Source of the DNA: a plasmid
DNA length: 64,000 nt
Direction: 5' to 3' (one strand)
Sequence record: NZ_CP094333.1
In this document: positions 4,898 through 29,237 of the stretch, one piece after another
Numbering within the stretch: position 1 is the first letter of the stretch
Layout of the letters: each line of letters begins with the position of its first letter
Position numbers and translations under genes: made by a program
The notes under the pieces: model-generated
Seen by the model: the letters and a program-made list of their open reading frames with translations, nothing else
The model's database searches: none
What the model was told of the DNA's origin: nothing

Positions 4898-7181
4898 ACA
4901 TCGCGTTAACCCCGAGCTTTTACACCGTACAGCCTGGGGAAATCCTGTCTGGAATGCACTCCAGAGTCTCAATATCTATGGCTTTTGCCTGGTGGCAAGT
5001 CTTGTGGCCAGTTTTATCTGGCCACTTGCATTACCGGCATGTCTGTTGTTCACACTGATAACAATGCTGGTATTTAGTCTGCAGCGATGGCGCTGCCCTC
5101 TTCGTATGCCCATGACGCTGGAATGTGCTGACCCGTCACAGGACAGAATGATTAAAAGAAGTCTTTTCAGCTTCTGGCCAACCCTGTTCCAGTATGAGGT
5201 CATTCTGGAATCACCGGCCAGCGGCATATTCTATGTTGGTTATCAACGCGTCAGGGATATTGGCAGGGAGTTATGGCTGAGTATGGACGATCTGACCCGC
5301 CATATAATGTTTTTCGCCACCACCGGTGGCGGTAAAACGGAAACCATCTTTGCCTGGGCGATTAACCCACTTTGCTGGGCAAGAGGATTCACCCTTGTCG
5401 ATGGCAAGGCACAGAATGATACGGCAAGAACGATCTGGTATCTGGCCAGACGCTTTGGACGTGAAGACGATGTGGAAGTCATTAACTTCATGAACGGAGG
5501 AAAATCCCGCAGTGAAATCATTCTGAGTGGTGAAAAAACGCGTCCTCAGTCAAATACCTGGAATCCCTTCTGTTACAGCACTGAGGCATTCACAGCGGAG
5601 ACAATGCAGTCAATGCTGCCCCAGAACGTCCAGGGGGGCGAGTGGCAGTCCCGGGCCATTGCCATGAATAAGGCACTGGTATTTGGTACTAAATTCTGGT
5701 GTGTGCGCGAAGGCAAAACAATGTCGCTGCAGATGCTCCGTGAACATATGACTCTCGAAGGGATGGCCAAACTTTACTGTCGTGGCCTCGATGATCAGTG
5801 GCCGGAAGAAGCTATCGCACCGTTACGTAACTACCTTCAGGACGTTCCCGGTTTCGACCTGTCGCTGGTCAGGACACCATCAGCCTGGACGGAAGAACCC
5901 AGAAAACAACATGCTTATCTCTCCGGGCAGTTTTCTGAAACTTTCAGCACATTCACGGAAGCATTCGGGGATATTTTTGCTGAAGATTCCGGTGATATCG
6001 ATATCCGTGACAGCATTCACAGCGACAGGATTCTGATGGTAATGATCCCCGCTCTGGATACATCAGCGCATACAACGTCTGCTCTTGGACGAATGTTTAT
6101 CACCCAGAAAAGTATGATTCTCGCCCGTGATTTGGGCTACCGCCTCGAAGGAACTGATTCCGATGCACTGGAAGTCAAAAAATATAAGGGGCGTTTCCCT
6201 TATCTGTGTTTCCTTGATGAAGTGGGGGCATACTATACGGACCGTATTGCTGTGGAAGCCACTCAGGTGCGTTCACTGGATTTTGCTCTGATTTTGATGG
6301 CACAGGACCAGGAACGTATAGAAGGACAGACAACAGCCACGAATACTGCAACACTGATGCAGAACACGGGGACAAAATTTGCCGGCAGGATTGTCAGCGA
6401 GGGCAGTACGGCCAGAACGCTGAAAAGCGCCGCCGGTGAAGAAGCCAGGGCGAGAATGAACAACCTGCAGCGTCAGGACGGCATATTTGGTGAATCATGG
6501 ATTGACAGCCCACAAATCAGCATCCTGATGGAAAGCAAGATAAATGTTCAGGAGTTGATTGAACTTCATCCTGGCGAATTCTTTTCTATTTTCCGGGGAG
6601 AAACCGTACCATCAGCATCATTCTTCATCCCTGACGATGAGAAAAGCTGCAGCAGCGATCCCGTTGTTATAAACAGGTATATCAGCGTGGATGCGCCACG
6701 CCTGGACCGTCTCCGCCGTCTTGTTCCCCGTACCACTCAACGTCGAATACCGTCACCGGAAAATGTCAGTGCCATCATTGGCGTCCTGACTGCAAAACCC
6801 TCCAGAAAAAGACGAAAAATTCGCACAGAGCCGCACACGATCGTGGATACATTCCAGCAACGCATTGCAGGACGTCAGGCGGCTATGGCAATGCTGGAAG
6901 AGTACGACACAGATATCAACGCACGTGAAAGTGCCTTGTGGGAAACAGCGGTGAATACGCTTAAAACGACCACACGGGAAGAGCGACGAATTCGCTATAT
7001 CACGCTGAACAGACCAGAACTACCTGAAACAAAAGAGGAAAATCAGATATCAGTGAGAGCAGAAAGAGCAGGTATAAACCTGTTAACGCTTCCACAGGAC
7101 AATAACCACCCGACAGGGCGTCCTGTAAACGGGTTTCATCATAAAAAAACCAACCGTCCGGACTGGGACGGAATGTACTGA
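4890..7181 (+). CDS. trbC: TrbC, a type IVB coupling ATPase (DotL/IcmO-like)
   Basis: 763 aa with Walker A (FFATTGGGKTET). N-terminal transmembrane segments. The start overlaps the trbB stop. Confidence 0.8.
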   Translation: MSEHRVNPELLHRTAWGNPVWNALQSLNIYGFCLVASLVASFIWPLALPACLLFTLITMLVFSLQRWRCPLRMPMTLECADPSQDRMIKRSLFSFWPTLFQYEVILESPASGIFYVGYQRVRDIGRELWLSMDDLTRHIMFFATTGGGKTETIFAWAINPLCWARGFTLVDGKAQNDTARTIWYLARRFGREDDVEVINFMNGGKSRSEIILSGEKTRPQSNTWNPFCYSTEAFTAETMQSMLPQNVQGGEWQSRAIAMNKALVFGTKFWCVREGKTMSLQMLREHMTLEGMAKLYCRGLDDQWPEEAIAPLRNYLQDVPGFDLSLVRTPSAWTEEPRKQHAYLSGQFSETFSTFTEAFGDIFAEDSGDIDIRDSIHSDRILMVMIPALDTSAHTTSALGRMFITQKSMILARDLGYRLEGTDSDALEVKKYKGRFPYLCFLDEVGAYYTDRIAVEATQVRSLDFALILMAQDQERIEGQTTATNTATLMQNTGTKFAGRIVSEGSTARTLKSAAGEEARARMNNLQRQDGIFGESWIDSPQISILMESKINVQELIELHPGEFFSIFRGETVPSASFFIPDDEKSCSSDPVVINRYISVDAPRLDRLRRLVPRTTQRRIPSPENVSAIIGVLTAKPSRKRRKIRTEPHTIVDTFQQRIAGRQAAMAMLEEYDTDINARESALWETAVNTLKTTTREERRIRYITLNRPELPETKEENQISVRAERAGINLLTLPQDNNHPTGRPVNGFHHKKTNRPDWDGMY

Positions 7182-7186
7182 ACAGT

Positions 7187-7219
7187 GGCCGCGCCGGATT
7201 CTGGCGCGGCCTTTTTTTT
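7187..7219. terminator. Bidirectional rho-independent terminator between convergent trbC and nikB
   Basis: ggccgcgccggattctggcgcggcc hairpin followed by T8. Confidence 0.6.
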
Positions 7220-9917
7220 AACCTGGAGAAGGCGGTTCCCAGCGTTTATCCTGCTCCGGCGGAGGCAGTGATGCGTCATCGTTGCTGTTCGCCGCGATAT
7301 AATCGCGGTAGTAGCGTTCACTTCCTTCACGGTGATGATCCACGTCCGGTCGCGTAATCCTGTAGTCTTCGTGACCGGTACGGCCTGTCACATTATGCCA
7401 GGCAACCATTTCAGCAAAGACCTGGTTAAATTGTTTGTCGTTTCCTTCTGGTTCAAAACCCATGCGTGGATCACGCCCGAATAATACCGGTGCAATCAAA
7501 TCCAGTTTATCTGCCAGCGCATTGCGGTCATGGTGATTACGGAAAACAACCCTGTCACCATAATCCGTACAGACAAACTCTCCCGTCCGACGGTCACGGA
7601 AACGAACACTCCCGTTCTTCTGCAGACGGGCCTCGAGATCACCGGTATTACCGTATACCGGCGTTCCGCCCGGTTCACAAAGCACGACACAGCGGTCTGT
7701 CGTCGTTGTGCGTGACCTGTCTTTACGGCGATCGCGATAATCCCAGCCTCTCAGCTGCGATACAGCAGCCCTGTCTCCCTGAGCAGCCTGAATTTCGACC
7801 CACTGACGGTAAGAGGGTGGATACCATTTCCCATCAGCAATAAGTTTCTGTCGCTCATCCCTGATGTCTTCTTTCAGCCTGATCAATGCCTGCATTCGCT
7901 GAACTTCTGCAATGTGATAATGCAGCTTACGTAATGCCGGATCATCGTACTGCGCACGAATGTGTGACTTCCGCAGACGGCATGCCTGATGAATTTCCCG
8001 ACAACGTTCCCCATAACGCAGATCTGGTTTACGCCATTGTTCACGCCATGCCAGATAGCGGGCACGCAGGTCAGCACGGGCCTCAGCTCTGGCTTCACGT
8101 CGCTGCCGGCGCAGCATTGGGTCACGTTTACTGCTGACCCCGTACCTGTCACTGACAGCCAGCTCCGGGTTATAGCGACTTTCAGGTTGCACCCTGTCAA
8201 ACAAATCTGCTGGGGCACTCACAAAAGGTCCGGCCTGTGGCTCTGCACGCCCCAGTGTCAGATCAGGATGAATGCTGCTGGCCTTCACCGGCGTTTGCTC
8301 ATGATTAAAGGCATCAACGACAACAAGCCCGTGATGTTGTTTCTGTAGCATCAGTCCCTGTTGTGCAAACAGCTCATGACAACGCTGCCAGGTAAACTCA
8401 CCCTGTGTGATCATTTCTTCAATCTGAGGGCTACAATGGCTGATGCTGTATCCCCACAGACTTTCTTTGTCAGAAAACAGTTCGCGTTTGATAGCCCCCT
8501 GCGGCCCCGTGCCTGTACGCATACGGTGCCATTCTTTATCGGTCGCAGGACAGCTCTCCATACGACGACCACGGAAGCGTTCTGTTGGCGTAACCTGGCG
8601 GAAAATATCTGTTGGTACAGGCTGCCAGCCACCATCGAGTTGATTCACATTGTCGAGCGTCAGCAGCGACCATACGCTGTCAGCACGAACGGGAGTCTGG
8701 TTATGATCATAACCGTCACAGATAACCAGGTGACCATGCTGAACACGCATCCATAATCCCGCTTCAGCCAGTGTGCGGTGAATAGCCTGGCAGTTTTCCA
8801 GCCGTCCTTCCCGTGCCATTTCCGGCAGACGTTCTCCAAGATGACGACAGGCATACTGCTGCAGACTTTCTGTTTCAGCGATTTTTTCCGGGCGAACATC
8901 AGCGGCAATGAAGTCCGGATTATAGCGTCCTGGTGCTTCCACCTGGCTGAAAATGTCTTTTGGTACTGGCGTGTAGTCACCCATTTTTTTCATGAGTTTT
9001 TCTGCACACCAGGAGGGACCAAACGAGTCAAGCTGTACACCTTCCCTGTTGCGATCCCAGCCATCCATCACCAGAAATTTTCCGTCCATCTGAGACAGGT
9101 ACAGACCATCTTCCGCAAGACGACGATGCAGGGATAACCAATCATTTACAGGTTCACTGCGTAAACCAGCGACCGCTGTCTGCGCGACATACTCGCGAAA
9201 AGTTTGTTTTTTTCCGCGTGTCCAAGCGTTCTGGCGATCACGTTCAACGGCAGTTTTGCGAACGATACGATTTCCCGGCGCATGGACCCAGCAACCGTTA
9301 TCCGGAGCAAAACCATGCTTCAGTTCAAGCTCACGGCAGGCACGGCTGAGTTTTTCCTGACTCCATGAAAGGCAATTGAGATAACCTGTAACCGGATGTA
9401 CCCGGTTGACCGCAACGTGAACATGCAGGTTATCAGTATCGGTATGTACGGCAGAAACATACTGATGTTCACCCAGCCCGAGGGATTTCAGGGTATGGCG
9501 TACACTGTCATAAATCTGTTCCGGACGCGGGCTTTCATGGGCCTGCCAGGAAAGAATGTAGTGAAAAACAGGATCAGTATTATCTTTCGCATAGTGTGCC
9601 TGCTGTGCAATGTACTCCATATCTGCAGCGGCAGTTTCAAGAGATGTACAGTTGTGAAAACAGGTCACACCATAAAAGTTAACCCATTCGCAGCCGTCCT
9701 TCATGACATCAACCAGCGCCACGAATGACTCATTTCGAAGACGTGTCGCATAATCAACAAGGCGACTGAAACGGCTTCGGTGCGGTTGTTCAGCCTGCGA
9801 AGAAGAAGATAAATCCAGTTCCTCATCGGTCATGTCATCCCGGACAGAGACGTAGGATACCAGGTCTTCGAACGAAGACTTGCCGTCCCTTCTCTTTTTC
9901 GGAATGACTGCATTCAC
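7218..9917 (-). CDS. nikB: NikB relaxase (MOBP type)
   Basis: 899 aa, the same length and N-terminus as R64 NikB. Lies next to nikA and oriT. Confidence 0.9.
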   Translation of the reverse strand: MNAVIPKKRRDGKSSFEDLVSYVSVRDDMTDEELDLSSSSQAEQPHRSRFSRLVDYATRLRNESFVALVDVMKDGCEWVNFYGVTCFHNCTSLETAAADMEYIAQQAHYAKDNTDPVFHYILSWQAHESPRPEQIYDSVRHTLKSLGLGEHQYVSAVHTDTDNLHVHVAVNRVHPVTGYLNCLSWSQEKLSRACRELELKHGFAPDNGCWVHAPGNRIVRKTAVERDRQNAWTRGKKQTFREYVAQTAVAGLRSEPVNDWLSLHRRLAEDGLYLSQMDGKFLVMDGWDRNREGVQLDSFGPSWCAEKLMKKMGDYTPVPKDIFSQVEAPGRYNPDFIAADVRPEKIAETESLQQYACRHLGERLPEMAREGRLENCQAIHRTLAEAGLWMRVQHGHLVICDGYDHNQTPVRADSVWSLLTLDNVNQLDGGWQPVPTDIFRQVTPTERFRGRRMESCPATDKEWHRMRTGTGPQGAIKRELFSDKESLWGYSISHCSPQIEEMITQGEFTWQRCHELFAQQGLMLQKQHHGLVVVDAFNHEQTPVKASSIHPDLTLGRAEPQAGPFVSAPADLFDRVQPESRYNPELAVSDRYGVSSKRDPMLRRQRREARAEARADLRARYLAWREQWRKPDLRYGERCREIHQACRLRKSHIRAQYDDPALRKLHYHIAEVQRMQALIRLKEDIRDERQKLIADGKWYPPSYRQWVEIQAAQGDRAAVSQLRGWDYRDRRKDRSRTTTTDRCVVLCEPGGTPVYGNTGDLEARLQKNGSVRFRDRRTGEFVCTDYGDRVVFRNHHDRNALADKLDLIAPVLFGRDPRMGFEPEGNDKQFNQVFAEMVAWHNVTGRTGHEDYRITRPDVDHHREGSERYYRDYIAANSNDDASLPPPEQDKRWEPPSPG

Positions 9918-15879: not shown

Positions 15880-16225
15880 ATGTTCTGCGACACCGGGCGG
15901 TGCCGTGCCTCCATAAAAGCCGGGCGATAAGGCGGGGATGCAGGGGCGCAAGGGAAGCCGCAGCCTGACGCACACGGCTGACGGGAGTTGCAGGGTGAGG
16001 CCGCGAAACCTGAGCGGACGAACGACCGGAAAATCACGGCAGACGGGAAGGAGGGACCGGGTGACCGCAGCGGCGAAGCGTACCCTTGCATCCCTGCCAG
16101 CCCGGCTAAGATGGAGGCACGGCACAGCCCGCACACGACGCTGAGGCCACAGAGCTGAAACCCCACAAGGCCATGCCCCGCATGGCCGGGTAAAAGCGGA
16201 GCCGCCGGCGACTTCCTTATTCCGG
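15880..16225. repeat. About 345-bp upstream region of ardA, duplicated upstream of klcA
   Basis: About 95% identical to 30538-30880 (gacaccgggcggtgccgtgcctccataaaagccgggcga...). Confidence 0.8.
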
Positions 16226-16457
16226 CGAGTGCAGAGGACACGCCGCATGACCTCCAGACCACCCCTGATATGAAACGATCATGATCGGCGTGTCCCTGCG
16301 TAAAATATACATGCCTGGTTCACCGGAGAATATCTGTGATATCCACAAGTTTTCTGTCGCGCAGCCAGTCCTGCGCTTCACGCACCACACAACTGTCCGG
16401 TTTCACCGCTTTCAGCGATGATGCCAGTCGCTTGATCAACATCACCAGTTCCCGTGT

Positions 16458-16916
16458 CTATATGTCCGGCATTGTCTCCGGCGGAGCAGGGGGACTCTCA
16501 TTTCCGACGCTCATCCCATGCGCTTCCAGTGTGGCACGGACAAACCAGGCGGCATCGACCAGTTGCTGTCCAATCCAGGCCAGATCGGCATTTCTGTCAC
16601 GGGCTGCCATTCGCTCGCCCGACAGCGCCTTGCTGATATGGCTGCGCACCAGATTATCCAGGAGTGCCTGCGCTTCTTCCGGTGAAAAGCCACCTGGTAT
16701 CTCTGTGCGCAACAGCCCTTTCCTGTACAGAAGCTGCAGCAGATCAACCTGCGACCGCACAGCAACTATCAGTACATAACGGACAACATTCGCACTGGCA
16801 GTGGTTTCTGTATCATTCAGCAGTTCTTCCGGATCGTTCCCCCCGGTGTTGCAGAGCAACGGCAACAGAGGTCGCATCCACGCGGGAACCTGGTATTTTT
16901 CGTCTGATTTCATCAT
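16458..16916 (-). CDS. Hypothetical leading-region protein (start at MMKSDEK)
   Basis: ATGATGA overlap with the psiA stop suggests translational coupling. Confidence 0.5.
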   Translation of the reverse strand: MMKSDEKYQVPAWMRPLLPLLCNTGGNDPEELLNDTETTASANVVRYVLIVAVRSQVDLLQLLYRKGLLRTEIPGGFSPEEAQALLDNLVRSHISKALSGERMAARDRNADLAWIGQQLVDAAWFVRATLEAHGMSVGNESPPAPPETMPDI

Positions 16917-17632
16917 ATTACGTTCTCCAGCTTGTTCGGGATCATCCACTGCTCAAGTGCACGTACCTGTACCGGTGCACCACGACCGGCCTCACCGGCT
17001 TCAAAAATCAGCCGCCAGAGTGGTTCCTCCTGCCAGAAAAACCGGTCAAATGATGACAGTGATGGAAAACGCCCGCACCACCCCCAGAAAATCGTTTCCA
17101 GATCATGCTCCTCAACAACACCAGACCAGCGGGACAACCAGCTTCCGACCGTGGCGGGAGTATGAAACGCAAGGTCAATCTGCGCCTGAGCAAAACATGT
17201 CTGGTATTCCAGTTCCCGTCGTTCTGCCTCACGTTCCCGCTGGCGGCTGTATTTCTGCTCTGTCAGCGTGGTTTTCTGACGACGACGCTCACCTTCACGA
17301 AAAGGCACGGACGGGAACAGACGGTGCCCCGCATCGGATGGCAGGGGAAGAACACAGACTTCCCCAAAACTTTCAATCAGTTTATCCACGGCAGCCAGCC
17401 ACAGGAGACGGTTGCCATGAAATTCCTCCTTCGTCAGCGCAGGGGCAAAAAAGCGGAGATCGGTCAGCGAAATCCGGCGACTGCCATTCAGGCAGCGAAA
17501 GAAAGCGGTGGCATAAGGCCATGCTGAAAGTGTGCGTCCCTGACGACGACGTTGTTCTGTGACAGCCACCGCCTGCATGGCGGCCTGTTGTTCTGCGCTG
17601 AGGGGGATCAGTGCCCGTGAACGTGCGCTCAT
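16913..17632 (-). CDS. psiA: PsiA plasmid SOS-inhibition protein
   Basis: 239 aa, overlaps psiB by 4 bp, conserved leading-region position. Confidence 0.85.
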
Positions 17633-18066
17633 GCCTGACCTCCTTCTGCCATCAGGATATGGATGATGTCGTTAACACTGTATCCCTGCGCATCCAGTGT
17701 CGCGGCAAGCGCCAGCGTGTGACTGATCGCGGCAGGCGTGAAGATATGTTGCACCTGAACGACGGCGAAAGGCTGTCCACCACCATTCACCAGAACCAGC
17801 ATCCAGAGCTGAGAGACGTCTCCCGGCGAACATAATGCCAGGTGGAAACGTTCGTGGGCTGGCGTGAAACGAACCTGGACGGGGAAAAAGCCCCCGAACT
17901 CGCTGCCATACTCTCCGTTCATCATCCAGTTAGCCGGTGCGTCCACTTTACGCATCACCTCGTGAGTGAGATTACGGCGCATATCGCTTCCCGCAGCACG
18001 GATTTCTTCATATTCCTGGGCATTCATGGACTGCAGGGCATTCAGTGTCAGTTCGGTATTCATCAT
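17629..18066 (-). CDS. psiB: PsiB plasmid SOS inhibitor (binds RecA)
   Basis: [27 protein letters not shown]...[14 protein letters not shown] closely matches F PsiB. Confidence 0.9.
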
Positions 18067-18117
18067 CGTATTTCTCCCTCTGCCGCCCCGTCTCCGGCGG
18101 GGCGGTGTGGTTGTTCA

Positions 18118-20082
18118 TCAGGCGGCATCAGCCAGGTTATCGGCGCGTTCAGTGGCATCCGTCTGTGGACGTGGTGAACACATCCAGCCAGGCACCCAGC
18201 GGTTGTCTTTCATATGGAACTCTGCATGTTCAGCGGCATCGCCTTTCTTCATCTTCTCTGCGTCCCGTGCGGCACCGGACAGTCCGGCATCATTCAGGGC
18301 TGCGATAATCTGCGGCTTTTTCAGGTGTCCGAAGAAGTTTGCTTTCGTCGGCTGCCACCAGTCGCGCATGTGAAAACCGATGGCGCTCTCCAGTGAGTCA
18401 AGCGGACTGCGTGACGTGCGACCACACTCGCGGGTCTGGACACCGTTAAGGCTGCATGCGGTGCAGAAACTGAGCAGGGATAACAGCACCTCCTGACTGA
18501 GTGACAGGAACGTCGTCATGTCCCGTGACCATCCCTCCGGTAACAGGGCCGCAAGACGGGCTTTTTCTGCCATCAGCGCCAGGAATGCGGCACCTTCCTT
18601 CCCTGACGGCGCATCGCTGGTCAGCGAATAATGTTTACATTCCAGGCTGATTTGTGCTGGTTTACTGTACGCTCCGCTGTCAAACACATTCAGGCAGAGC
18701 GTCCATGCCAGCAGTGCCAGAGATTTGTCCGGTTGCTGCATCAGTGCTGCCTGGACTGCCAGCGTGCGTTCGGAAGACATTTTCGTCAGCAACGGCAGAC
18801 TGATTTCCTCCACTGACGCTTTCTCCTGCACCTGTTCCGTGCGGTCAGCGTCATCAGTCGCGTCATCTTCACTGCGCAACTGCACACCACGCTGGACACA
18901 CACATTACCGTAACGCCAGGACACCACCACGCCACTTCCGGCACGCATCTCCGGCGTCCACGCCCTGACCTTCGCCATGCAGCGCATCAGCTTCATTTCT
19001 GCTTCCAGCAGGTCGGATTCCTCACACTGGTTTTCCAGCGCGTCGTAACGCGTCATCAGTTCGTTCAGGCGTTCTTCTTCTGCCTCCGTCAGCACCGCTT
19101 CCGGCTCCGGCAGACAGCGGTATGTTCCGGCATCCTCACGGCACTCACCGACAGGCTCCATGCGTCCGGCGCACCATTCCCAGCCTTCGGCTTCCCGAAG
19201 GTGTTCAGCGACAGCCTGGAGTTTTTCCAGCAGGGCAGCATCGAGCGCCACGCGGTCGACATAACCGTCCCCGTCATCGCTGAACAAATCAGTACGCAGT
19301 TCGTCAGGTGAGAAAGCATCAGCCCCCACGAAGCGGAATTTACTGTTACCTGCCACCGCCACTTCACTTTCGGTCACCAGACGACGAATGGTCTGTACTT
19401 CCGGTTTACCGCCCCATCCCGACTGGCAGGCGGCTTCAAACACCTGCACCTGACGCGCGGTGTCGTTCTCCAGCGCCAGCGCCTGACAGTGCTCTGTGGT
19501 GATGCGGTCTTCTGCCAGCGCATCGAGGATGACAGGCGCAAGGTCTGCCAGTTTCAGCATTCGCTGAACGTGGCGGGGCGAATAGCCCAGCAAATCACCG
19601 ATTTGTGCAGGCGTTTTGCCTTCCTGCGCCATCGCACGGAATCCGGCAATCTGTTCGGCAGGGTGCATATCCCGACGATGACCGTTTTCAGTCATTGATG
19701 CAGCCGTCGCCAGCTCCTGCGGAATAACCTTCACGCGTACAGGCCAGTCAGCCGGAATGATGCCACGCTCTGCCAGCATGTTGAGTGCAGCCAGTCGGCG
19801 ACCACCTGCGGCGACACCGTAACGGTCACCAGGCAGGGTATGCACGACCAGATTCTGCAGCAGTCCGACGCCCTTAATGGACTCCGCCAGTTCGCTGACG
19901 GACTCCGCAGAATACGGCACCGTGCGCACATTCAGCGGTGATTTAATCAGCGAGGCCAGCGGCACGCTCACTTCCTCCGTCTGCGCCAGCAGGGCAGACA
20001 GGACAGTTTCCTGCGTTTTTACAGATTTACGGCTTGCTTTGCGGGTGGTTTCTGGTTCACACTTCGTTACAGGCATAATCAT
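18118..20082 (-). CDS. ParB/Srx-like nuclease-domain protein (654 aa) of leading regions
   Basis: N-terminal ParB-like domain (GxxRxxA context). Conserved position between ssb and psiB. Confidence 0.75.
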   Translation of the reverse strand: MIMPVTKCEPETTRKASRKSVKTQETVLSALLAQTEEVSVPLASLIKSPLNVRTVPYSAESVSELAESIKGVGLLQNLVVHTLPGDRYGVAAGGRRLAALNMLAERGIIPADWPVRVKVIPQELATAASMTENGHRRDMHPAEQIAGFRAMAQEGKTPAQIGDLLGYSPRHVQRMLKLADLAPVILDALAEDRITTEHCQALALENDTARQVQVFEAACQSGWGGKPEVQTIRRLVTESEVAVAGNSKFRFVGADAFSPDELRTDLFSDDGDGYVDRVALDAALLEKLQAVAEHLREAEGWEWCAGRMEPVGECREDAGTYRCLPEPEAVLTEAEEERLNELMTRYDALENQCEESDLLEAEMKLMRCMAKVRAWTPEMRAGSGVVVSWRYGNVCVQRGVQLRSEDDATDDADRTEQVQEKASVEEISLPLLTKMSSERTLAVQAALMQQPDKSLALLAWTLCLNVFDSGAYSKPAQISLECKHYSLTSDAPSGKEGAAFLALMAEKARLAALLPEGWSRDMTTFLSLSQEVLLSLLSFCTACSLNGVQTRECGRTSRSPLDSLESAIGFHMRDWWQPTKANFFGHLKKPQIIAALNDAGLSGAARDAEKMKKGDAAEHAEFHMKDNRWVPGWMCSPRPQTDATERADNLADAA

Positions 20083-20425: not shown

Positions 20426-20914
20426 TCAGAACGGGATGTCGTCTGAAAACCCGTAATCCTCCCCCTCCGGCGGTTGCGGCTGAGGCTCTGGCTGCGCGGC
20501 CTTACGTCCACGGCCTTTCGTTTTCGCGCCACCTTTTTTCGTCGCGTCAGCACTCTGTGGCTGCCCATTCTGCTGAGGCTTCGGTTGCGCCTGAGCGTTC
20601 TGCTGTGGTGCACGTCCCAGCATCTGCACGGTGCCCGTGGTCTTAACAAGAATTTCAGTGACGTAACGGGTGATACCGTTATCTTCCCAGCTACGGGTGC
20701 GAAGCTGACCTTCGATGTAGACCTGCGCACCCTTGCACAGATATTCACCTGCCACTTCCGCGAGCTTGCCGAACAGCACCACGCGGTGCCATTCCGTCTG
20801 CTCCCGCATCTCCCCCGTCTGTTTGTCACGCCAGCTTTCTGATGTGGCCACCTGCAGGTTTGCCACTGCGCCCCCGTTGGGGATGTAACGGACTTCCGGA
20901 TCATTGCCCAGACG
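20426..20914 (-). CDS. ssb: Plasmid SSB, exon 2 (codons 14-175)
   Basis: [36 protein letters not shown]...DDIPF. Near-identical to F-plasmid SSB from residue 14 onwards. Confidence 0.85.
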
Positions 20915-21060
20915 GTAGGGTAGGGTACGTGTGGTCTTTCAAGATAAATGGCGAATATGTCCTGCTTATCTTGAGTTAGATCACCGTTACCCCCCCTCCG
21001 AACCGTACGTGCACCTTTCAATGCATACGGCTCTCCATTGCTAGCTTATTGGGGATAAAC

Positions 21061-22962
21061 TCATTTAGCAGAATCCCCACTTGAGACAGGTGGTTGCAGG
21101 AGTATTCTTCCCTTTTCCTGTCTCAGATCGGGTAGTTTTCCGCTATGTAACTTGTCGTGGCAACTTGCGCACAAAATCATCGTTTTCCGGCGGCGTGCGA
21201 TCATCATTAGTTGCCACAGGCTGGGTTTATATCCGGCCTTACGACCTTTCTTCAGGTCTTTTAGCTTTCTGACATGATGTACTTCGCAGCGCCCAGTCTT
21301 CGCACAATACTCGCAGATCCTTGCCCCTAATCGACGCATGATCTCTGTTGTGCGGGTTGTGATATGTGCGGTTCTCGGTTCCGTATCGACAATCGTTGTT
21401 CGGTTGCGATTGACATGTTTGAGTTTGAAAACCTCAATCTTTCGGGATCCATTTTTGGCCTGAACGGTAATAGCCAGATCTCCATTATTTTGCCGTAGCG
21501 ATTTGGCGACTTTATTCACTGAACTACGTCGTTTATTCGCTAGGGTCTTAAAAAGGCTTATTTGCCATATGAAATATAATTTTGATAATTTATATTTCAT
21601 GTCCAGCGCCAGACTGTAGTAGTTCGCCAATCCGCGCATTTCCGCGTTGAAAGTCAGAACAATTTCAGCTTCACTGAGATTTTGTAGACTTGAACGATGT
21701 ACAGCCTTCACATTCTCATAACAGCCATATTTCTTTTGGTGACAAAATTTAGCGGCTATATTGTCAGGAACGAAGAGCTGCACAATTCCTGTGGTGGATC
21801 TCCGGAGAGCGTGCCGCCCTTGCATTTTCTGCTTCAGCAATTTCTTTGCATCTGCCTGTCTGATTTCATAGCCTAAAAAATTAACTCCTTCTGAGATATG
21901 GCGGATCCTGGTCTTTGCTTCATTAACTTCCAATCCCAGTGAAGTAGTAATAAAGTTTCTGACCTGTCTTGATATATGTTCAGCATCTTTCTTCGAGCCG
22001 ATGACACCAATTACGAAGTCATCAGCATATCGAACATAGTACATACGCCTGAAGTTTGGATCGTTCATGACCTGAGATGGTATAGAACGTTTTTCTTCAA
22101 GCAGTCGTTCAATTTCTTTCTTTATGGCTTCTTTTTCTGATTCAGAATCAGTTGCCATACCGTCTACTTTCTTTCGTAGTTTATGAATCTTATGGGCCAG
22201 CCTGTTCATATCTGGATTCGCTCTTCGTTTTGTACCGCTTGTATATGCAGGAATTAAGTTCTGTTCTACAAAACGGTCCAGTTTGTCGAGGTATATATTT
22301 GCCAGTAAGGGAGAAATTATCCCACCTTGTGGCGTGCCAGAATATGAGCGATGGTATTTCCAATTGTCCACATATCCTGCCTTCAGCCACTGTTCGATTA
22401 ATTTCAGGAAATTCTTATCCTTAATTTTCTCTGCCAGTGTATTCAGCAATAGTTTGTGGGGGATATTGTCAAAGAAACCTTTGATATCAACATCCACGAT
22501 CCATTTAACTCCGTTCCAGACTGGACGAATAGATCTGAGCGCAGTTTCACACGAACGTTTTGGTCTGAATCCATGAGAGTGTTCAGAGAATACTGGTTCA
22601 TAAACCCTTTCCAGAATAATTCTTGCTACTTCTTGCGCCAGTTTATCGTCTCCACCTGGAATCCCCAGCGGTCTGGTTTTTCCGTCCTTTTTTGGGATCT
22701 GAACTCTGCGTACAGGTTTCGCTACGTATTCTCTACTCCGCAATGTTTTTGCCAGCTTCTCTGCTCTTTCGATAGAGAAGCCATCAATGGTATCTGTTGA
22801 TACACCTTGAGTCAGTGCACCTGCATTGGCCCGTATATTCACGTAGGCTTGCAGCCACAGTCCGGGCTCACACGCAATTTTGTATAGATTACGTACTGGA
22901 TACCCTTTTTTTGAAGCATCCTCAATTCCATCTAATCTTTTCTCAAGTTCATCAGGCAGCAT
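21061..22962 (-). CDS. ltrA: Group II intron reverse transcriptase/maturase with C-terminal HNH endonuclease (LtrA-like)
   Basis: 633 aa. RT motifs (RPLGIP; YVRYADDFVIGV) and HNH (CEYC...HHV...CASCH). Confidence 0.9.
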   Translation of the reverse strand: MLPDELEKRLDGIEDASKKGYPVRNLYKIACEPGLWLQAYVNIRANAGALTQGVSTDTIDGFSIERAEKLAKTLRSREYVAKPVRRVQIPKKDGKTRPLGIPGGDDKLAQEVARIILERVYEPVFSEHSHGFRPKRSCETALRSIRPVWNGVKWIVDVDIKGFFDNIPHKLLLNTLAEKIKDKNFLKLIEQWLKAGYVDNWKYHRSYSGTPQGGIISPLLANIYLDKLDRFVEQNLIPAYTSGTKRRANPDMNRLAHKIHKLRKKVDGMATDSESEKEAIKKEIERLLEEKRSIPSQVMNDPNFRRMYYVRYADDFVIGVIGSKKDAEHISRQVRNFITTSLGLEVNEAKTRIRHISEGVNFLGYEIRQADAKKLLKQKMQGRHALRRSTTGIVQLFVPDNIAAKFCHQKKYGCYENVKAVHRSSLQNLSEAEIVLTFNAEMRGLANYYSLALDMKYKLSKLYFIWQISLFKTLANKRRSSVNKVAKSLRQNNGDLAITVQAKNGSRKIEVFKLKHVNRNRTTIVDTEPRTAHITTRTTEIMRRLGARICEYCAKTGRCEVHHVRKLKDLKKGRKAGYKPSLWQLMMIARRRKTMILCASCHDKLHSGKLPDLRQEKGRILLQPPVSSGDSAK

Positions 22963-23455
22963 TGGCTAACCCTCCTCTTAGAGATTGATGTATCTAACAA
23001 CTGTCTCCCTTCCCCGCAGCACTGTGAGGCTTTCATCTCCCTTCCGGTTGATTTATACCTTTGCTGCTTCCGTATAATGCGGACTGCCGTAGCCCATTAC
23101 AGGCCGACCTTGAGTACTATGGAGACTCCGCTACCATGCTGGGTATAAATCCAGTTTAGGTAGTCCCGTAGTTTCACGGTGTGGAGATGCGATGTACTTA
23201 GGATGTCTTTCGATCGTTTAACTATTTCATCAATAGCTGGCCCGTTAGAGTGGTCACAATCAACGTAGGGCGGATTTCTTGTGCTATTACGGGAATAACG
23301 CTTCAATCGTTCTGCGTTATTGGTTTCCTGTTTCCCACATAGATCTCGACTTCAACAAACCCAGTTTATCCATATACATCTTGCATTGAGTGGTGATACT
23401 TAGTAACCGGCTCATTTAAACCGTCTGGTCTGTTTCCTCCGGCTCTACAAAAATA

Positions 23456-24133
23456 ATGTCCATCATTTTTAATGGACACTATCGTATGAAACACCGGACC
23501 TGGATCACTGAAGCTTTACGTCTTCACTTTGAAGAACATTTACCCCGGGTTGTGGCCGGGCGTCGCCTGGGTGTACCAAAATCAACAGTTTGTAGTATGT
23601 TCGTGCGCTTTCGGAGAGCTGGCCTTTCGTGGCCTTTGCCCGCAGGCATGTCGGAGCAGGAACTTGATGCCTGCCTTTACGGACAATTTTCCACGGTACC
23701 AGTCGTACGTCCTGAAAGCACCGTTATATCCGAAGCCCCCATGGTAAAAAAACGTCCCCGGCGGCCCAACTTCCCTTATGAGTTTAAAATCGCCTTAGTG
23801 GAGCAGTCACTGCAGCCCGGAGCCTGTGTGGCGCAGATCGCCCGGGAAAACGGAATCAACGATAACCTGCTCTTCAACTGGCGCCATCAATACCGGAAAG
23901 GTGGCCTGCTGCCTTCCGGAAAAAATATGCCGGCACTGCTTCCCGTGACGTTAACGCCGGAGCCGGATAATAAAATCCCGGCCCCCGCACAGGAACCAGA
24001 GCAGATAAATACACCGTCCGACAGTCTGTGTTGTGAGCTGGTTCTGCCGGCCGGAACTCTCAGGCTTAAAGGTAAACTGACGCCGGCGTTATTACAGACA
24101 CTTATCCGCGAAATAAAAGGGAGCAGCCACTGA
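23456..24133 (+). CDS. tnpA: IS66-family accessory protein TnpA (Orf1)
   Basis: First ORF of the IS66 layout. Confidence 0.8.
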   Translation: MSIIFNGHYRMKHRTWITEALRLHFEEHLPRVVAGRRLGVPKSTVCSMFVRFRRAGLSWPLPAGMSEQELDACLYGQFSTVPVVRPESTVISEAPMVKKRPRRPNFPYEFKIALVEQSLQPGACVAQIARENGINDNLLFNWRHQYRKGGLLPSGKNMPALLPVTLTPEPDNKIPAPAQEPEQINTPSDSLCCELVLPAGTLRLKGKLTPALLQTLIREIKGSSH

Positions 24134-24480
24134 TGATATCTCTCCCTGCAGGTTCGCGTATCTGGCTGGTTGCAGGTATCACCGATATGCGAAATGGCTT
24201 TAACGGCCTGGCATCAAAAGTTCAGAACGTCCTGAAGGATGACCCGTTCTCCGGACACCTGTTCATCTTCCGCGGACGCCGGGGTGACCAGATAAAAGTG
24301 TTGTGGGCTGACAGTGACGGACTGTGCCTCTTCACCAAACGCCTGGAGCGGGGCCGCTTCGTCTGGCCAGTCACCCGTGACGGCAAGGTGCACCTTACTC
24401 CGGCTCAGTTATCCATGCTTCTTGAAGGTATCAACTGGAAGCACCCGAAACGAACGGAACGCGCTGGAATCCGCATATAA
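24133..24480 (+). CDS. tnpB: IS66-family TnpB (Orf2)
   Basis: 115 aa, start overlaps tnpA stop (ATGA), conserved IS66 Orf2. Confidence 0.85.
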   Translation: MISLPAGSRIWLVAGITDMRNGFNGLASKVQNVLKDDPFSGHLFIFRGRRGDQIKVLWADSDGLCLFTKRLERGRFVWPVTRDGKVHLTPAQLSMLLEGINWKHPKRTERAGIRI

Positions 24481-24499
24481 CCCGTTGTAAAGTGAGGAT

Positions 24500-26071
24500 A
24501 TGGACACCTCACTTGCTCATGAGAACGCCCGCCTGCGGGCACTGTTGCAGACGCAACAGGACACCATCCGCCAGATGGCTGAATACAACCGCCTGCTCTC
24601 ACAGCGGGTGGCGGCTTATGCTTCCGAAATCAACCGGCTGAAGGCGCTGGTTGCGAAACTGCAACGTATGCAGTTCGGTAAAAGCTCAGAAAAACTTCGT
24701 GCAAAAACCGAACGGCAGATACAGGAAGCACAGGAGCGAATCAGCGCACTTCAGGAAGAAATGGCGGAAACGCTGGGTGAGCAATATGACCCGGTACTGC
24801 CATCCGCCCTGCGCCAGTCTTCAGCCCGTAAACCGTTACCGGCCTCACTTCCCCGTGAAACCCGGGTTATCCGGCCGGAAGAGGAATGCTGTCCTGCCTG
24901 TGGTGGTGAACTCAGTTCTCTGGGATGTGATGTGTCAGAGCAACTGGAGCTTATCAGCAGCGCCTTTAAGGTTATCGAAACACAACGTCCGAAACAGGCC
25001 TGTTGCCGGTGCGACCATATCGTGCAGGCACCAGTACCTTCAAAACCCATTGCACGCAGTTATGCCGGAGCGGGGCTTCTGGCCCATGTTGTCACCGGGA
25101 AATATGCAGACCATCTGCCGTTATACCGCCAGTCAGAAATATACCGTCGTCAGGGAGTGGAGCTGAGCCGTGCCACACTGGGGCGCTGGACAGGTGCTGT
25201 TGCTGAACTGCTGGAGCCGCTGTATGACGTCCTGCGCCAGTATGTGCTGATGCCCGGTAAAGTCCATGCTGATGATATCCCCGTCCCGGTCCAGGAGCCG
25301 GGCAGCGGTAAAACCCGGACAGCCCGGCTGTGGGTCTACGTCCGTGATGACCGTAACGCCGGTTCACAGATGCCCCCGGCGGTCTGGTTCGCGTACAGTC
25401 CGGACCGGAAAGGTATCCATCCACAAAATCACCTGGCCGGTTACAGCGGTGTGCTTCAGGCCGATGCTTACGGTGGTTACCGGGCGTTATACGAATCCGG
25501 CAGAATAACGGAAGCCGCGTGTATGGCTCATGCCCGGAGAAAAATCCACGATGTGCATGCAAGAGCGCCCACCTACATCACCACGGAAGCCCTGCAGCGT
25601 ATCGGTGAACTGTATGCCATCGAGGCAGAGGTCCGGGGCTGTTCAGCAGAACAGCGTCTGGCGGCAAGAAAAGCCAGAGCCGCGCCACTGATGCAGTCAC
25701 TGTATGACTGGATACAGCAACAGATGAAAACACTGTCGCGTCACTCAGATACGGCAAAAGCGTTCGCATACCTGCTGAAACAGTGGGATGCACTGAACGT
25801 GTACTGCAGTAATGGCTGGGTGGAAATCGACAACAACATCGCAGAGAACGCCTTACGGGGAGTGGCCGTAGGCCGGAAAAACTGGATGTTCGCGGGTTCC
25901 GACAGCGGTGGTGAACATGCGGCGGTGTTGTACTCGCTGATCGGCACATGCCGTCTGAACAATGTGGAGCCAGAAAAGTGGCTGCGTTACGTCATTGAAC
26001 ATATCCAGGACTGGCCGGCAAACCGGGTACGCGATCTGTTGCCCTGGAAAGTTGATCTGAGCTCTCAGTAA
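24500..26071 (+). CDS. tnpC: IS66-family DDE transposase TnpC
   Basis: 523 aa with N-terminal leucine-zipper-like coiled coil and a CxxC zinc-finger region. Confidence 0.9.
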
Positions 26072-26282
26072 ATATCAATACGGTTCTGACGAGTCGCTTA
26101 CGATACTTATAACGATTTCCGTATTCACCACCCTTTTCTGTGGATGCTATGTTCACCTCTCCTTTTCAGGATCTCCGAGCCTGTTACCAAGCGAGGCTAA
26201 CCACAGTATGCAATGGCTATACCACTAAGCCATGTTGCTTTTCATGCAACACTCCATAAAACACCGCGCTTCAACGGCGCAC

Positions 26283-26321
26283 CCCGACGAGGATGACCTT
26301 GTTGATACCACGTGCACTCAT
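26283..26321 (-). CDS. ssb: Plasmid SSB, exon 1 (MSARGINKVILVG)
   Basis: RBS ggagg 6 nt upstream, then ATG AGT GCA CGT GGT ATC AAC AAG GTC ATC CTC GTC GGG, followed by intron GTGCG. Confidence 0.75.
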
Positions 26322-26384
26322 AAGAACCTCCTGACTGAAAGATGTGAGATAAACCGGATACCGGCGACGGGACGTTCATGTGCC

Positions 26385-26893
26385 CCTTCAGAGGAGCGAA
26401 AGCTCCTCCTGCCGTCCACTTCACAGGGGTTTCTCCCCGCAGTGGACCTTTCCGATGGGGGCCCGTTTACCGCCTCACGGGACAGCTGCCCGGGGGCGGA
26501 CGCAAAATTTTTAGCCGGGTTCATGGCTAAAAATTTTGTGGCCGGTGCATCTCACCCTGGACAGATGGAACGGGAGGGGGTTACGTCTGCCCCCCGGAAA
26601 GTCCACAGCGGGAAACAGGCCGCAGGGGTGGCGGCAGGAGGGAAGACTGCTGCGCCATCAGGCGCAGTTTCCTCACACACCGTCAGGTGTGCAGGGAGCG
26701 CAGGTCACGGCGCGACAGGGGCGGCGCGACCGGAACGGTCGCTGCAAGCCGGGTTTTCACGCATCGGACCGTAGCGGCAGCCCGAAACCGCGCCAGCGGG
26801 TTCGGCGGAGACTGGCGGGTGCGCCAGCAGCTGCCTGTCGGAGTCGGGCCTGACGACCGGATGCCGCCAGGCAGCCGGGAGCCGAAGTGGGCG
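26385..26893. promoter_or_regulatory. Frpo/ssi-like repeat, copy 3, upstream of ssb. Its tail resumes at ~29239-29430 after intron 2
   Basis: Shares long identical blocks with copies 1 and 2. The homology breaks at 26893 and resumes after the intron. Confidence 0.55.
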
Positions 26894-29237
26894 GTGCGAC
26901 AGGAAGTCGCTTAACGTATTGTTTTACATTGATAAAACCAGCTATCCCATTAGCTGTAGCCTACCGGGACAGGCGCTGCCGGCAACGGCGGGGTCTGAAG
27001 CTCCCGGGACAACGAGAGCCGGGCGTCAGCCCGGGTAAAGCCCCGTGAGGGGCTTTACCTTGCTGCAAGCATCATGTGGCAGGAGAGCAAGGCTGGTCAG
27101 AAGGGTTAACACATGTGAACTGTTGATAAACACCGTTATCGGCAACAGGCCAAAGATGCTGACAGGCCTGAACCAAAAGGTACGGGGTCCGGTTGCTACC
27201 TCGCGCACAGGGAGCACATGGGCGCAGAGACCCCCGGTGAAGAGACAGAACCCGCCCTGACCCTCTGTATGTTAAGCGGAACCTGGTAAACCCGTATCGC
27301 TGCCTTACAGGCAGGTGAACCGTAAGGAACACTGTAGGCGGTGCGGGCAGAGGAGGACGGAAAAAGCAAATGCCCGGTTGTAATGACCGGGATACGGGGC
27401 AGGTTCCCCGACGCGAAAGCGGGCAGACTTCCGTCTGGTCTTTAATTGCATGAAAAGCTGTAAAGCAGTCAAAAGGATATCAGCGAGATGAATACACACA
27501 TCAGTGTGTCCACGATACCCCACCCGACAGGCTGGCACACCATAGACTGGAAAGCATGCCATGCCCGGGTGCGAAAGCTACAGTTACGGATTGCAAAGGC
27601 AACCCGACAGCAACAATGGCGGCAGGTCAGAGAACTACAGCGCATCCTCACCCGCTCATTCTCCGGCAAAGCCGTGGCTGTCAGGCGTGTAACTGAAAAT
27701 ACCGGTAAAAGGACACCCGGTATTGACGGAAAAATATGGCACACACCGAAGGAGAAATGGGAAGGAATATGCAGCCTGAATCTGTGTGGTTACAGGCCAC
27801 AGCCACTACGGCGAATACATATCCCAAAATCAAACGGCAAAACGCGACCGCTGGGCATACCCACAATGAGGGACCGGGCCATGCAGGCACTGTGGCTGCT
27901 GGCTCTGGAACCCGTATCCGAGACCACTGCTGACCATAACAGCTATGGTTTCAGACCAATGCGCAGCACGCATGACGCCATTGAGTCCATTTTTCTGCGG
28001 ATGAGCCAGAAAGTATCGCCCAAATGGATACTGGAGGGCGATATTAAAGGGTGTTTCGATAACATCAGCCATGACTGGCTGCTTTCCCATATTCCGATGG
28101 ACAGGAGACTGCTTAAAAAATGGTTGAAAGCAGGTTACATGGAAAGAGGCGTGTTTAACCATACGAACAGCGGGACACCGCAGGGAGGCATCATATCCCC
28201 TGTTCTCGCCAACATGGCTCTGGACGGACTGGAGAAGGAACTGATGCAAACGTTCAGGAAAAGTGGTTATCACAGTGCAAAGCACCAGGTGAATTATGTG
28301 AGATATGCTGATGATTTCATCTGTTCAGGCAGCTCCCGTGAATTGCTGGAAAATGAGGTCAGACCACTGATTGCAGCTTTCATGCGCGAACGAGGGCTGG
28401 AACTGTCGGAAGAAAAAACCGCGATTACACATATAGATAAAGGCTTCGACTTTTTAGGGCAGAACGTCAGGAAGTACAACGGTAAAATGCTGATTAAACC
28501 GTCGAAGAAAAACCTGAAGAACTTCCTCTGTAAAGTCAGAGAAATAATTAAACGCAATCCGACGCTCCCGGCATGGAAACTGATAGGCCAGCTAAACCCG
28601 GTAATCCGGGGATGGGCTACCTATCACCGACACGTCGTGGCGAAAGAAACATTTAATTATGTCGACACCCAAATCTGGCGAGCTATATGGCGATGGTGTG
28701 TAAGAAGGCACCCCCGAAAAGGATTGCGGTGGATCGCCGGACGATACTTCTCCTTTGAAGGCAGGCGCTGGATCTTTAAAGCCATAACCCCGGAAGGGAA
28801 AATTCTGACTCTCTTCCGGGCAATGGAAACACCGATAAAGCGCCATATAAAAATCAAAGGCGAAGCAACACCATACACCCCCGGAATGGAAATCTACTTT
28901 GAACGTCGTCTGGATCTAATCTGGAAAGGCAAATCAAAGAAGATGAAGACAGTAGTTCAACTCTGGAAGAGGCAGGGGAAACACTGTCCGCAGTGCGGAC
29001 AACCCATAACCAACCAGACCGGATGGAATATACATCACCGGATCAGGAAAGTTATGGGCGGCAGTGACGAACTGACCAATCTCGAGTTGTTACATCCGAA
29101 CTGCCACCGACAGTTACACAGCAGGGAAGCCGGTGCTCACCGAAAGCACTTATAAAGGCTTGAGCGGAGTGCGGGGAAACTCGCACGCTCCGTTCTTAGG
29201 GGGCGGCGGCGCAGCAATGTGCCGCTGCTACCCGACC
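26894..29237 (+). mobile_element. Second group II intron (different lineage) inserted within Frpo-like copy 3
   Basis: 5' GTGCGAC at 26894. RT ORF 27488-29155. Domain V GAGCGGAGTGCGGGGAAACTCGCACGCTCCGTTC at 29162-29195. Domain VI hairpin with a bulged A at 29230. The 3' end is approximate. Confidence 0.7.
27488..29155 (+). CDS. Group II intron reverse transcriptase/maturase/HNH endonuclease (555 aa)
   Basis: RT motifs (RPLGIPTMRDR; YVRYADDF) and C-terminal HNH (CPQCG...HH...HPNCH). Confidence 0.9.
   Translation: MNTHISVSTIPHPTGWHTIDWKACHARVRKLQLRIAKATRQQQWRQVRELQRILTRSFSGKAVAVRRVTENTGKRTPGIDGKIWHTPKEKWEGICSLNLCGYRPQPLRRIHIPKSNGKTRPLGIPTMRDRAMQALWLLALEPVSETTADHNSYGFRPMRSTHDAIESIFLRMSQKVSPKWILEGDIKGCFDNISHDWLLSHIPMDRRLLKKWLKAGYMERGVFNHTNSGTPQGGIISPVLANMALDGLEKELMQTFRKSGYHSAKHQVNYVRYADDFICSGSSRELLENEVRPLIAAFMRERGLELSEEKTAITHIDKGFDFLGQNVRKYNGKMLIKPSKKNLKNFLCKVREIIKRNPTLPAWKLIGQLNPVIRGWATYHRHVVAKETFNYVDTQIWRAIWRWCVRRHPRKGLRWIAGRYFSFEGRRWIFKAITPEGKILTLFRAMETPIKRHIKIKGEATPYTPGMEIYFERRLDLIWKGKSKKMKTVVQLWKRQGKHCPQCGQPITNQTGWNIHHRIRKVMGGSDELTNLELLHPNCHRQLHSREAGAHRKHL

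Follow-up and report, generated by a model that had tools for sequence, protein, structure and literature searches.

A plasmid ssb gene split by the group II intron E.c.I11, itself interrupted by ISCro1

Which elements split the single-stranded DNA-binding protein gene (ssb) of the plasmid in sequence record NZ_CP094333.1, in what order did they arrive, and what would their presence mean for the gene? We analyzed a stretch of 64,000 nucleotides of this plasmid (hereafter the window), in which ssb lies on the minus strand between positions 26321 and 20426. An earlier note, made from the letters of the DNA, had read the locus as an ssb gene split by a group IIA intron that is in turn split by an insertion sequence (IS) of the IS66 family, and all the features and coordinates that it listed were present, exact to the base. 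We favor the explanation that the mobile intron E.c.I11 entered the ssb of an I-complex plasmid and that the IS element ISCro1 later disabled both the intron and the gene; our probability for this explanation as a whole is about 0.87. The anatomy of the locus, the identity of its elements, the order of events, and the distribution of the intron are documented here. Positions given without an accession refer to the window (Table 1), and labels of the form L001 denote loci in other sequence records.

An intron within ssb and an insertion sequence within the intron

Comparison of the exon junction with plasmid ssb genes, which the earlier note had proposed, identified an uninterrupted homologue in the Shigella flexneri plasmid CP151330 (L003, IncK2/Z). 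In this plasmid exons 1 and 2 abut with 0 bases gained or lost (query positions 1-218 aligned to 3001-3218 and 5587-6139 to 3219-3771, with identity >99%). The joined protein of 175 amino acids matched the plasmid SSB model NF010292 (NCBIfam; PRK13732) over positions 1-175 of 175, with 383.1 bits against a cutoff of 265, and a full-length match was obtained only when the exons were joined. The claim that the reading frame resumes without gain or loss of residues was thus borne out by both the intact gene and the protein model. The host gene is the leading-region ssb of an I-complex (MOBP, NikB-type) conjugative plasmid, and the inserted intron is AT-richer than its surroundings (44% GC, compared to 60% in exon 2).

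The intervening sequence displays the conserved ends of a group II intron, 5′ GUGCG (26282-26278) and 3′ ...CCCUAC (20915), fitting the GUGYG and AY consensus, and a domain VI with a bulged A located 7 nt from the intron 3′ end. Once the IS and one copy of its flanking repeat are subtracted, the intron measures 2,661 nt. An open reading frame (ORF) in domain IV specifies the intron-encoded protein (IEP), which contains reverse transcriptase (RT), maturase X, DNA-binding, and HNH endonuclease domains. The IEP scored 310.7 bits against TIGR04416, the NCBIfam equivalog for group II RT/maturase proteins (cutoff 300), and its best match among solved structures was Lactococcus LtrA (5g2x; E = 5.5e-119, 401 bits, residues 25-604); IIB and IIC proteins matched it over the RT domain only, with at most 166 bits. 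The same protein, WP_000936285.1, is the IEP in L001, L002, L004, L005, L006, and L009. Together, the Rfam match to domains V and VI, the IEP domains, and the LtrA match agree with the group IIA reading and support a mobile group II element of the IIA/mitochondrial-like (ML) type whose LtrA-like protein bears an HNH domain.

Searches with group II models gave a divided outcome, since domains V and VI (D5-D6) were recovered by RF00029, while none of the Rfam group-II-D1D4 families matched the IS-less intron at E values up to 1. Because the class of the RNA was not assignable via Rfam, we examined domain I by comparison with relatives. A scan for IEP relatives in one genome per species yielded 2 loci only, too few for a covariation model. 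We used RNAalifold on three sequences, the window intron, a relative from Xenorhabdus (L008, 79.5% identical), and a variant from another plasmid (L009, 99.3% identical). The predicted consensus fold contains a long-range helix closing domain I (about nt 6-21 with nt 395-410) and stems resembling those of domains II and III; 12 of its pairs are kept through double changes, 3 of them in the hairpin struck by the IS. With only three sequences, this fold is supportive of a conserved architecture of domains I to III (D1-D3) but not definitive.

The IS within domain I is a complete element, as had been claimed, with its genes, its termini, and its duplicated target all in place. Its ends are imperfect inverted repeats starting with GTAA, and only the IS is flanked by the 8-bp target duplication, which reads TAAGTATC on the minus strand and gatactta on the plus strand. 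The insertion point follows intron nt 181, and the transposase genes are antisense to ssb and the intron. This is the one copy of ISCro1 in the window; the annotated copy in CP151330 (3772-6470) stands just downstream of the intact ssb. With its tnpA-tnpB-tnpC organization, 8-bp duplication, and GTAA termini, the window copy matches ISCro1 and the IS66 family in general, differing in its insertion site alone.

Both of the remaining structural claims, that the intron entered first and the IS66 element second, agree with the comparison to plasmids without the IS. Intron copies lacking the IS are 100% identical to the window intron over 2,661 nt, and the target duplication repeats intron nt 174-181. 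Since identical IS-less copies are widespread and the duplication consists of intron sequence, the order of intron first and IS second is well supported on comparative grounds. A joint arrival of intron and IS as a composite was ruled out, because IS-less identical copies are the norm and the duplication flanks the IS only. We also ruled out an assembly artefact, both junctions being clean and accompanied by the target duplication. The exact junction of intron and IS at nt 181 was absent from PLSDB and from the complete E. coli genomes.

Table 1. Positions of the ssb exons, the split intron, ISCro1, and a second intron in the window, with the basis of each assignment
Feature	Position	Strand	Basis
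ssb ribosome-binding site AGGAGG	26327..26332	-	Read off the sequence; 5 nt 5′ of the start codon ATG (26321)
ssb exon 1, 13 codons, MSARGINKVILVG	26283..26321	-	Direct reading; directly joined to exon 2 in L003, whose ssb is intact
ssb exon 2, 162 codons and stop (20428-20426)	20426..20914	-	Frame picks up at 20914
Group II intron, 5,368 nt including the IS	20915..26282	-	GTGCGCC from 26282; ends ...CCCTAC at 20915
Intron nt 1-181 (5′ GUGCG and start of domain I)	26102..26282	-	100% identical to nt 1-181 of IS-less copies
Intron nt 182-2661 (rest of domain I, domains II-III, domain IV with ORF, domains V-VI)	20915..23394	-	100% identical to IS-less copies
Putative delta (G305) and EBS1 (nt 306-312, CCCUACG)	23264..23271	-	Best duplex with exon -7..+3 in D1-D3
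IEP, 633 amino acids, WP_000936285.1	21061..22962	-	Pfam RVT_1, Intron_maturas2, AI2M-like HNH
Domains V and VI	20915..21035	-	Rfam RF00029 (Intron_gpII), model 1-77 in full, 65.4 bits (gathering score 40)
Domain V, 34 nt, GAGCCGTATGCATTGAAAGGTGCACGTACGGTTC, AGC triad	21000..21033	-	Within the Rfam Intron_gpII match
ISCro1 (IS66 family), 2,699 bp	23403..26101	+	Identical over 2,699 bp to the ISCro1-annotated copy in CP151330
tnpA	23456-24133	+	Pfam HTH_Tnp_1
tnpB	24133-24480	+	Pfam TnpB_IS66
tnpC	24500-26071	+	Pfam DDE_Tnp_IS66 with zf-IS66, LZ, and C-terminal domains
Target duplication, copy 1 (TAAGTATC on minus strand)	26102..26109	.	Final 8 nt of intron nt 1-181
Target duplication, copy 2 (TAAGTATC on minus strand)	23395..23402	.	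Equals intron nt 174-181
Second group II intron, 2,343 nt, GTGCGAC...CCCGAC	26894-29236	+	Unrelated to E.c.I11
Second intron, group-II-D1D4-7	26938-27087	+	Rfam, 119.7 bits
Second intron, IEP	27488-29155	+	RVT_N, RVT_1, GIIM, HNH
Second intron, D5-D6	29160-29236	+	Rfam

Identity, distribution, and exon recognition of E.c.I11

The IS-less intron equals positions 16018-18678 of the E. coli ST131 plasmid pEC958 at 2,661 of 2,661 nt and is located there between the same ssb codons, 13 and 14. pEC958 was reported to carry a single group II intron, named E.c.I11 (Phan et al. 2015, PMC4398462). Our use of the name rests on that single-intron statement, in a paper that does not mention ssb; within the first 50 kb of pEC958, the ltrA of the window intron is the sole ltrA gene. 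The two plasmids share the intron, the ssb codons, and the IEP accession (WP_000936285.1), but they differ in that the window copy is broken by ISCro1 after nt 181 while the pEC958 copy is IS-less, in the host plasmid (I-complex compared to IncF), and in exon 1, which ends in ...CTCGTCGGG in the window and in ...CTTGTCGGT in pEC958. Identity at 2,661 of 2,661 nt was also found with the copies in pJIE174 (IncI1/B/O), pECAZ146_1 (IncFIA/FIB), CP107157, and PV023021.

In PLSDB, at least 475 plasmids, with Escherichia, Klebsiella, Salmonella, and Shigella as their sources, carry the junction of the intron with exon 2, as do 467 records from 380 of the 5,426 complete E. coli genomes (~7%). Domains I-III were found in 440 PLSDB records, 429 of them IS-less identical copies, so that nearly all intron copies reside in ssb. 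A distant-mode plasmid search with D1-D3 revealed no copies below about 98% identity. The novelty that the earlier note had implied therefore does not stand, since the intron already has a name in pEC958 and its ssb junction recurs in hundreds of plasmids; the element is known (E.c.I11 and ISCro1), and only the insertion site is unrecorded. Our searches of the open-access literature turned up no paper stating that a group II intron splits a plasmid ssb and no splicing test of E.c.I11. The introns of this group described for F33 plasmids ("downstream of ycjA") and the one disrupting yffB (Benz & Hall 2023) represent another element or other elements.

The same intron appears in at least three exon 1 contexts (...CTCGTCGGG, ...CTCGTGGGA, and ...CTTGTCGGT), and 100% identical copies span IncI1/B/O, IncI-gamma/K1, and IncF plasmids. 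An identical intron in several exon contexts points to repeated homing rather than to one inherited event, as judged from these comparisons. A more distant relative, 79.5% identical, occupies the same ssb codon in Xenorhabdus budapestensis (NZ_NIBS01000026.1, L008, 880-3552), where the ssb junction reads MSSRGVNKVILVG|HLGQDPE... and the gene adjoins a STY4534-family replication gene of an integrative and conjugative element (ICE), upstream of a transposase-like ORF. Because this relative interrupts an ICE-borne ssb at the same codon, the ssb of conjugative elements appears to be the conserved target of the intron lineage.

The 467 records come from 380 genomes, which implies at least two occupied ssb copies in many of them, and ~10% of the ssb-bearing E. 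coli records are intron-occupied. On these totals, the co-occurrence of occupied ssb genes looks to be above independence, as would result from homing between co-resident plasmids.

Automatic annotation tends to conceal the interruption. A 161-amino-acid "single-stranded DNA-binding protein" is called from codon 15 (CTG) of exon 2 (L001, 9590-10075; L002, 6883-7368; L006, 15940-16017 and 18682-19167), with exon 1 left unannotated or flagged as an incomplete pseudogene; as a consequence, an intron-occupied ssb looks like an intact short SSB in hundreds of records. In ~7% of the complete E. coli genomes, expression of a plasmid ssb would thus depend on E.c.I11 splicing, a dependence hidden by annotation.

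Two further records hold rearranged copies. In the IncI-gamma/K1 plasmid NZ_CP023900.1 (L010, 3001-3405), a deletion derivative of the intron starts at nt 209 directly beside umuD, and in NZ_CP015838.1 (H160) the intron and 38 nt of exon 2 are fused to a parB-like gene.

Interruptions of the intron itself are infrequent, with D1-D3 interrupted or truncated in ~11 of the 440 PLSDB copies and uninterrupted in ~97%, so that nested insertion in E.c.I11 is uncommon but unremarkable. ISCro1 was also found after nt 250 in inverted orientation in CP107157 (L001, 4461-4468) and after nt 364, oriented as in the window, in PV023021 (L005, 7296-7303). Three independent ISCro1 insertions are therefore contained in a 190-nt stretch of domain I, in both orientations, and the target duplications at nt 181, 250, and 364 are TAAGTATC, AAACAGGA, and AAACGATC, respectively. 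This stretch could be a local hotspot for ISCro1, in a sample biased by the design of the queries. In NZ_CP085077.1 (L011, 519-6762), E.c.I11 is broken after nt 2332, inside the IEP gene, by a 3.58-kb insert with an IS3-type frameshift pseudoknot (Rfam ALIL, 120 bits), which also holds a second complete group II intron (ltrA, 4317-5825; D5-D6, 5829-5915). This locus is a three-level nest of ssb, intron, IS of the IS3 family, and intron.

Exon recognition was examined in the same set of sequences. The 3′ terminal 7 nt of exon 1, CGUCGGG, form intron-binding site 1 (IBS1), with which the putative exon-binding site 1 (EBS1) at nt 306-312 pairs at 6 of 7 positions. Natural variants of IBS1 read CGUCGGG, CGUGGGA, and UGUCGGU. 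An exhaustive search for perfect 6-7-mer EBS1/EBS2 complements gave no perfect EBS1. Using RNAduplex, nt 303-312 ranked first, with an energy that is not significant alone (equalled by 102 of 300 shuffled targets). A natural variant in the IncI-gamma/K1 plasmid L009, with 18 substitutions in 2,661 nt relative to the window intron, makes the assignment credible. Two of these changes, C306U and U309G, fall inside the 7-nt EBS1 segment (P about 0.001 for a segment fixed beforehand), and the resulting UCCGACG pairs with all 7 positions of CGUCGGG, compared to 6 for CCCUACG. The Xenorhabdus relative carries the same two bases, and its EBS1 pairs at 4 of 7 positions with its own exon and at 7 of 7 with the E. 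coli IncI ssb exon. Directly 5′ of EBS1, G305 pairs with the +1 C of exon 2 in all five of the five exon contexts, neither base varying, which is consistent with the delta-delta′ arrangement of IIA introns without proving it.

A close parallel is Ll.LtrB of Lactococcus lactis, a group IIA intron that occupies the relaxase gene (ltrB) of a conjugative element. Both introns encode an LtrA-like IEP with RT, maturase, and HNH domains and reside in a conjugation-associated gene of a conjugative element, and the putative delta position of E.c.I11 lies directly 5′ of EBS1, as in Ll.LtrB. They differ in target (relaxase gene compared to ssb) and in host phylum, the proteins are clearly diverged, and for E.c.I11 splicing and mobility are predicted. 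The natural EBS1 variants and the Xenorhabdus relative would offer a ready system for tests of target recognition.

Consequences for splicing and for ssb

According to the explanation we favor, an IS-less E.c.I11 would splice out of the ssb transcript and would spread by retrohoming, in which reverse splicing into the sense strand, guided by EBS1 and delta, would be followed by HNH cleavage of the bottom strand and then by reverse transcription. ISCro1 later transposed into a domain I hairpin after nt 181, leaving the 8-bp duplication. The IS sits in the distal part of the hairpin at nt 150-188, the stem of which is backed by three covarying pairs, and 2.7 kb of antisense transposase genes separate the 5′ 181 nt from EBS1 (nt 306-312) and the catalytic domains. 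Splicing and retrohoming would both be lost, leaving a null ssb allele and a dead intron copy. The loss of ssb should be tolerated, with no fitness cost, since plasmid ssb is dispensable for transfer (PMC9849209); deletion of ssb or of the Frpo2 promoter in the F plasmid had no significant effect on conjugation efficiency, and the first plasmid duplications were merely delayed (PMC9849209). That neither splicing nor retrohoming works is the most likely outcome, and we infer it, like the lack of SSB and of any fitness cost, from the position of the IS and from the F-plasmid data.

Several points weigh against this explanation. Our searches of the open-access literature returned neither expression nor splicing data for any copy of E.c.I11. 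The missing D1-D4 match in Rfam weakens, without excluding, the IIA/ML class, as the models may not cover the ML type. Regarding exon recognition, one EBS2 candidate (nt 149-154) falls in a covariation-supported stem, a loop candidate (GAAAU) fits the Xenorhabdus exon and not the E. coli exon, and the main intron variant carries one mismatch to its own IBS1. Some natural group II introns split in domain I function by trans-splicing, making some residual splicing across the insert conceivable.

The alternative that survives best, though we consider it unlikely, holds that ssb was poorly expressed or silent from the entry of E.c.I11 on, owing to inefficient splicing, and that the IS was a neutral hit. 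The widespread variant pairs at just 5 to 6 of 7 positions with IBS1 in three exon contexts, low yields of ligated exons have been reported for bacterial group II introns (PMC3522654), and the dispensability of plasmid ssb would mean weak selection for efficient splicing. However, all inspected copies share one identical, intact IEP ORF, and D1-D3 are uninterrupted in ~97% of the PLSDB copies. Moreover, recent entry into several ssb alleles requires an active ribonucleoprotein and hence a ribozyme able to excise itself.

A second alternative, which we regard as less probable still, is that the IS insertion was selected, shutdown or lower expression of the ssi3 operon (ssb, the DUF905 gene, the parB-like gene, psiB, and psiA) being advantageous in some hosts and the intron being no more than the landing place of the IS. 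Experimental evolution of IncI1 plasmids with an extended-spectrum beta-lactamase repeatedly produced mutations in this operon, and engineered ssi3-operon mutants showed raised transfer in a host-specific manner (PMC10104558). The independent presence of ISCro1 at three intron sites and once just downstream of ssb could be read in the same sense, but the sample of insertions is biased, with queries centered on the ssb/intron region. IS-disrupted copies are also rare (~11 of 440 PLSDB records), and the absence of the exact junction from every other record in PLSDB and the complete E. coli genomes gives no sign of clonal success.

A split intron that keeps its fold despite the 2.7-kb insert and splices, leaving ssb functional, is quite improbable. 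Large insertions can be accommodated in some loops of group II introns, and the IS is in the distal part of a hairpin (nt 150-188) rather than at a core junction. Nevertheless, the insert exceeds the intron in length, breaks a stem supported by covariation, and parts the 5′ end from EBS1 and the catalytic domains.

Taken as found, the locus is of small significance, one more inactivated copy of a common named intron in plasmids where nested mobile elements are routine.

The leading region, strandedness, and a second intron

The window encodes a NikB-like MOBP relaxase (7218-9917, minus strand). The leading-region genes ardA, psiA, the parB-like gene, the DUF905 gene, and ssb share this strand, and their transcription runs in the direction of the relaxase. 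The transferred strand (T-strand) is the template strand for ssb and its neighbors, and SSB genes are so oriented throughout conjugative elements (PMC9849209, PMC11541004). Because IBS1 and delta′ are on the sense strand, that is, the non-transferred strand, the transferred strand is not the target of reverse splicing. The HNH domain of the IEP fits target-primed retrohoming into double-stranded DNA.

Single-stranded DNA at replication forks serves some group II introns as a target, and the leading region, with ssb in it, enters the recipient as a single strand. Even so, the route that the earlier note had taken the nesting to document, reverse splicing of the intron into the plasmid strand exposed as single-stranded DNA in conjugative transfer, is very improbable and finds no support here. 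The T-strand is antisense to ssb, in agreement with the gene order of the window, the intron targets the sense strand, the IEP has an HNH endonuclease for double-stranded targets, and nesting carries no information on strandedness. The retained donor strand may be transiently single-stranded, which makes some single-stranded route conceivable.

Between ssb and a second intron further upstream, the T-strand DNA of 26322..26860 (plus strand) is predicted to fold with -156 kcal/mol (z = -8.6), and 0 of 100 shuffled sequences were as stable. In IncI1 plasmids ssi3 is located upstream of ssb (PMC10104558, Dataset S3), and the predicted structured stretch fits the position of an ssi3/Frpo-type single-strand promoter.

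The intron lineage appears to be dedicated to the ssb of conjugative elements, directly behind a putative promoter that would fire on entry into a new host. A stronger version, which we offer as a tentative and on balance doubtful idea, is that E.c.I11 and its relatives are specialists of this gene; with a position as the first transcribed sequence behind ssi3/Frpo2, intron RNA and IEP would be produced in a burst on entry, just when a resident intron-free ssb could be invaded. If true, this would account for the 100% identity between copies from IncI, IncK, and IncF backbones and for what looks like a surplus of genomes in which two or more ssb genes are occupied (467 records in 380 genomes), and the IS-disrupted copy of the window would be a dead end in a homing system that is active and coupled to conjugation. 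Research on plasmid SSB and the ssi3/Frpo2 operon is ongoing, yet none of the open-access papers searched discusses ssb as a target of E.c.I11.

The second intron is also a mobile group II intron of the leading region, but it belongs to another class (Rfam D1D4-7) and has the opposite orientation to E.c.I11. Its 5′ end is located ~30 nt past the structured stretch and 572 bp upstream of the ssb start codon, and its sense strand is the T-strand. It is inserted in a small yffB-like ORF (WP_001434357.1), which is intact in L001, L002, and L005. In an IncI1 plasmid under experimental evolution, Benz & Hall (2023, PMC10104558) reported new junctions made by a "putative group II intron" that disrupts yffB, and the second intron appears to be that element. 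Being antisense to its host ORF, it would not be removable from the yffB mRNA.

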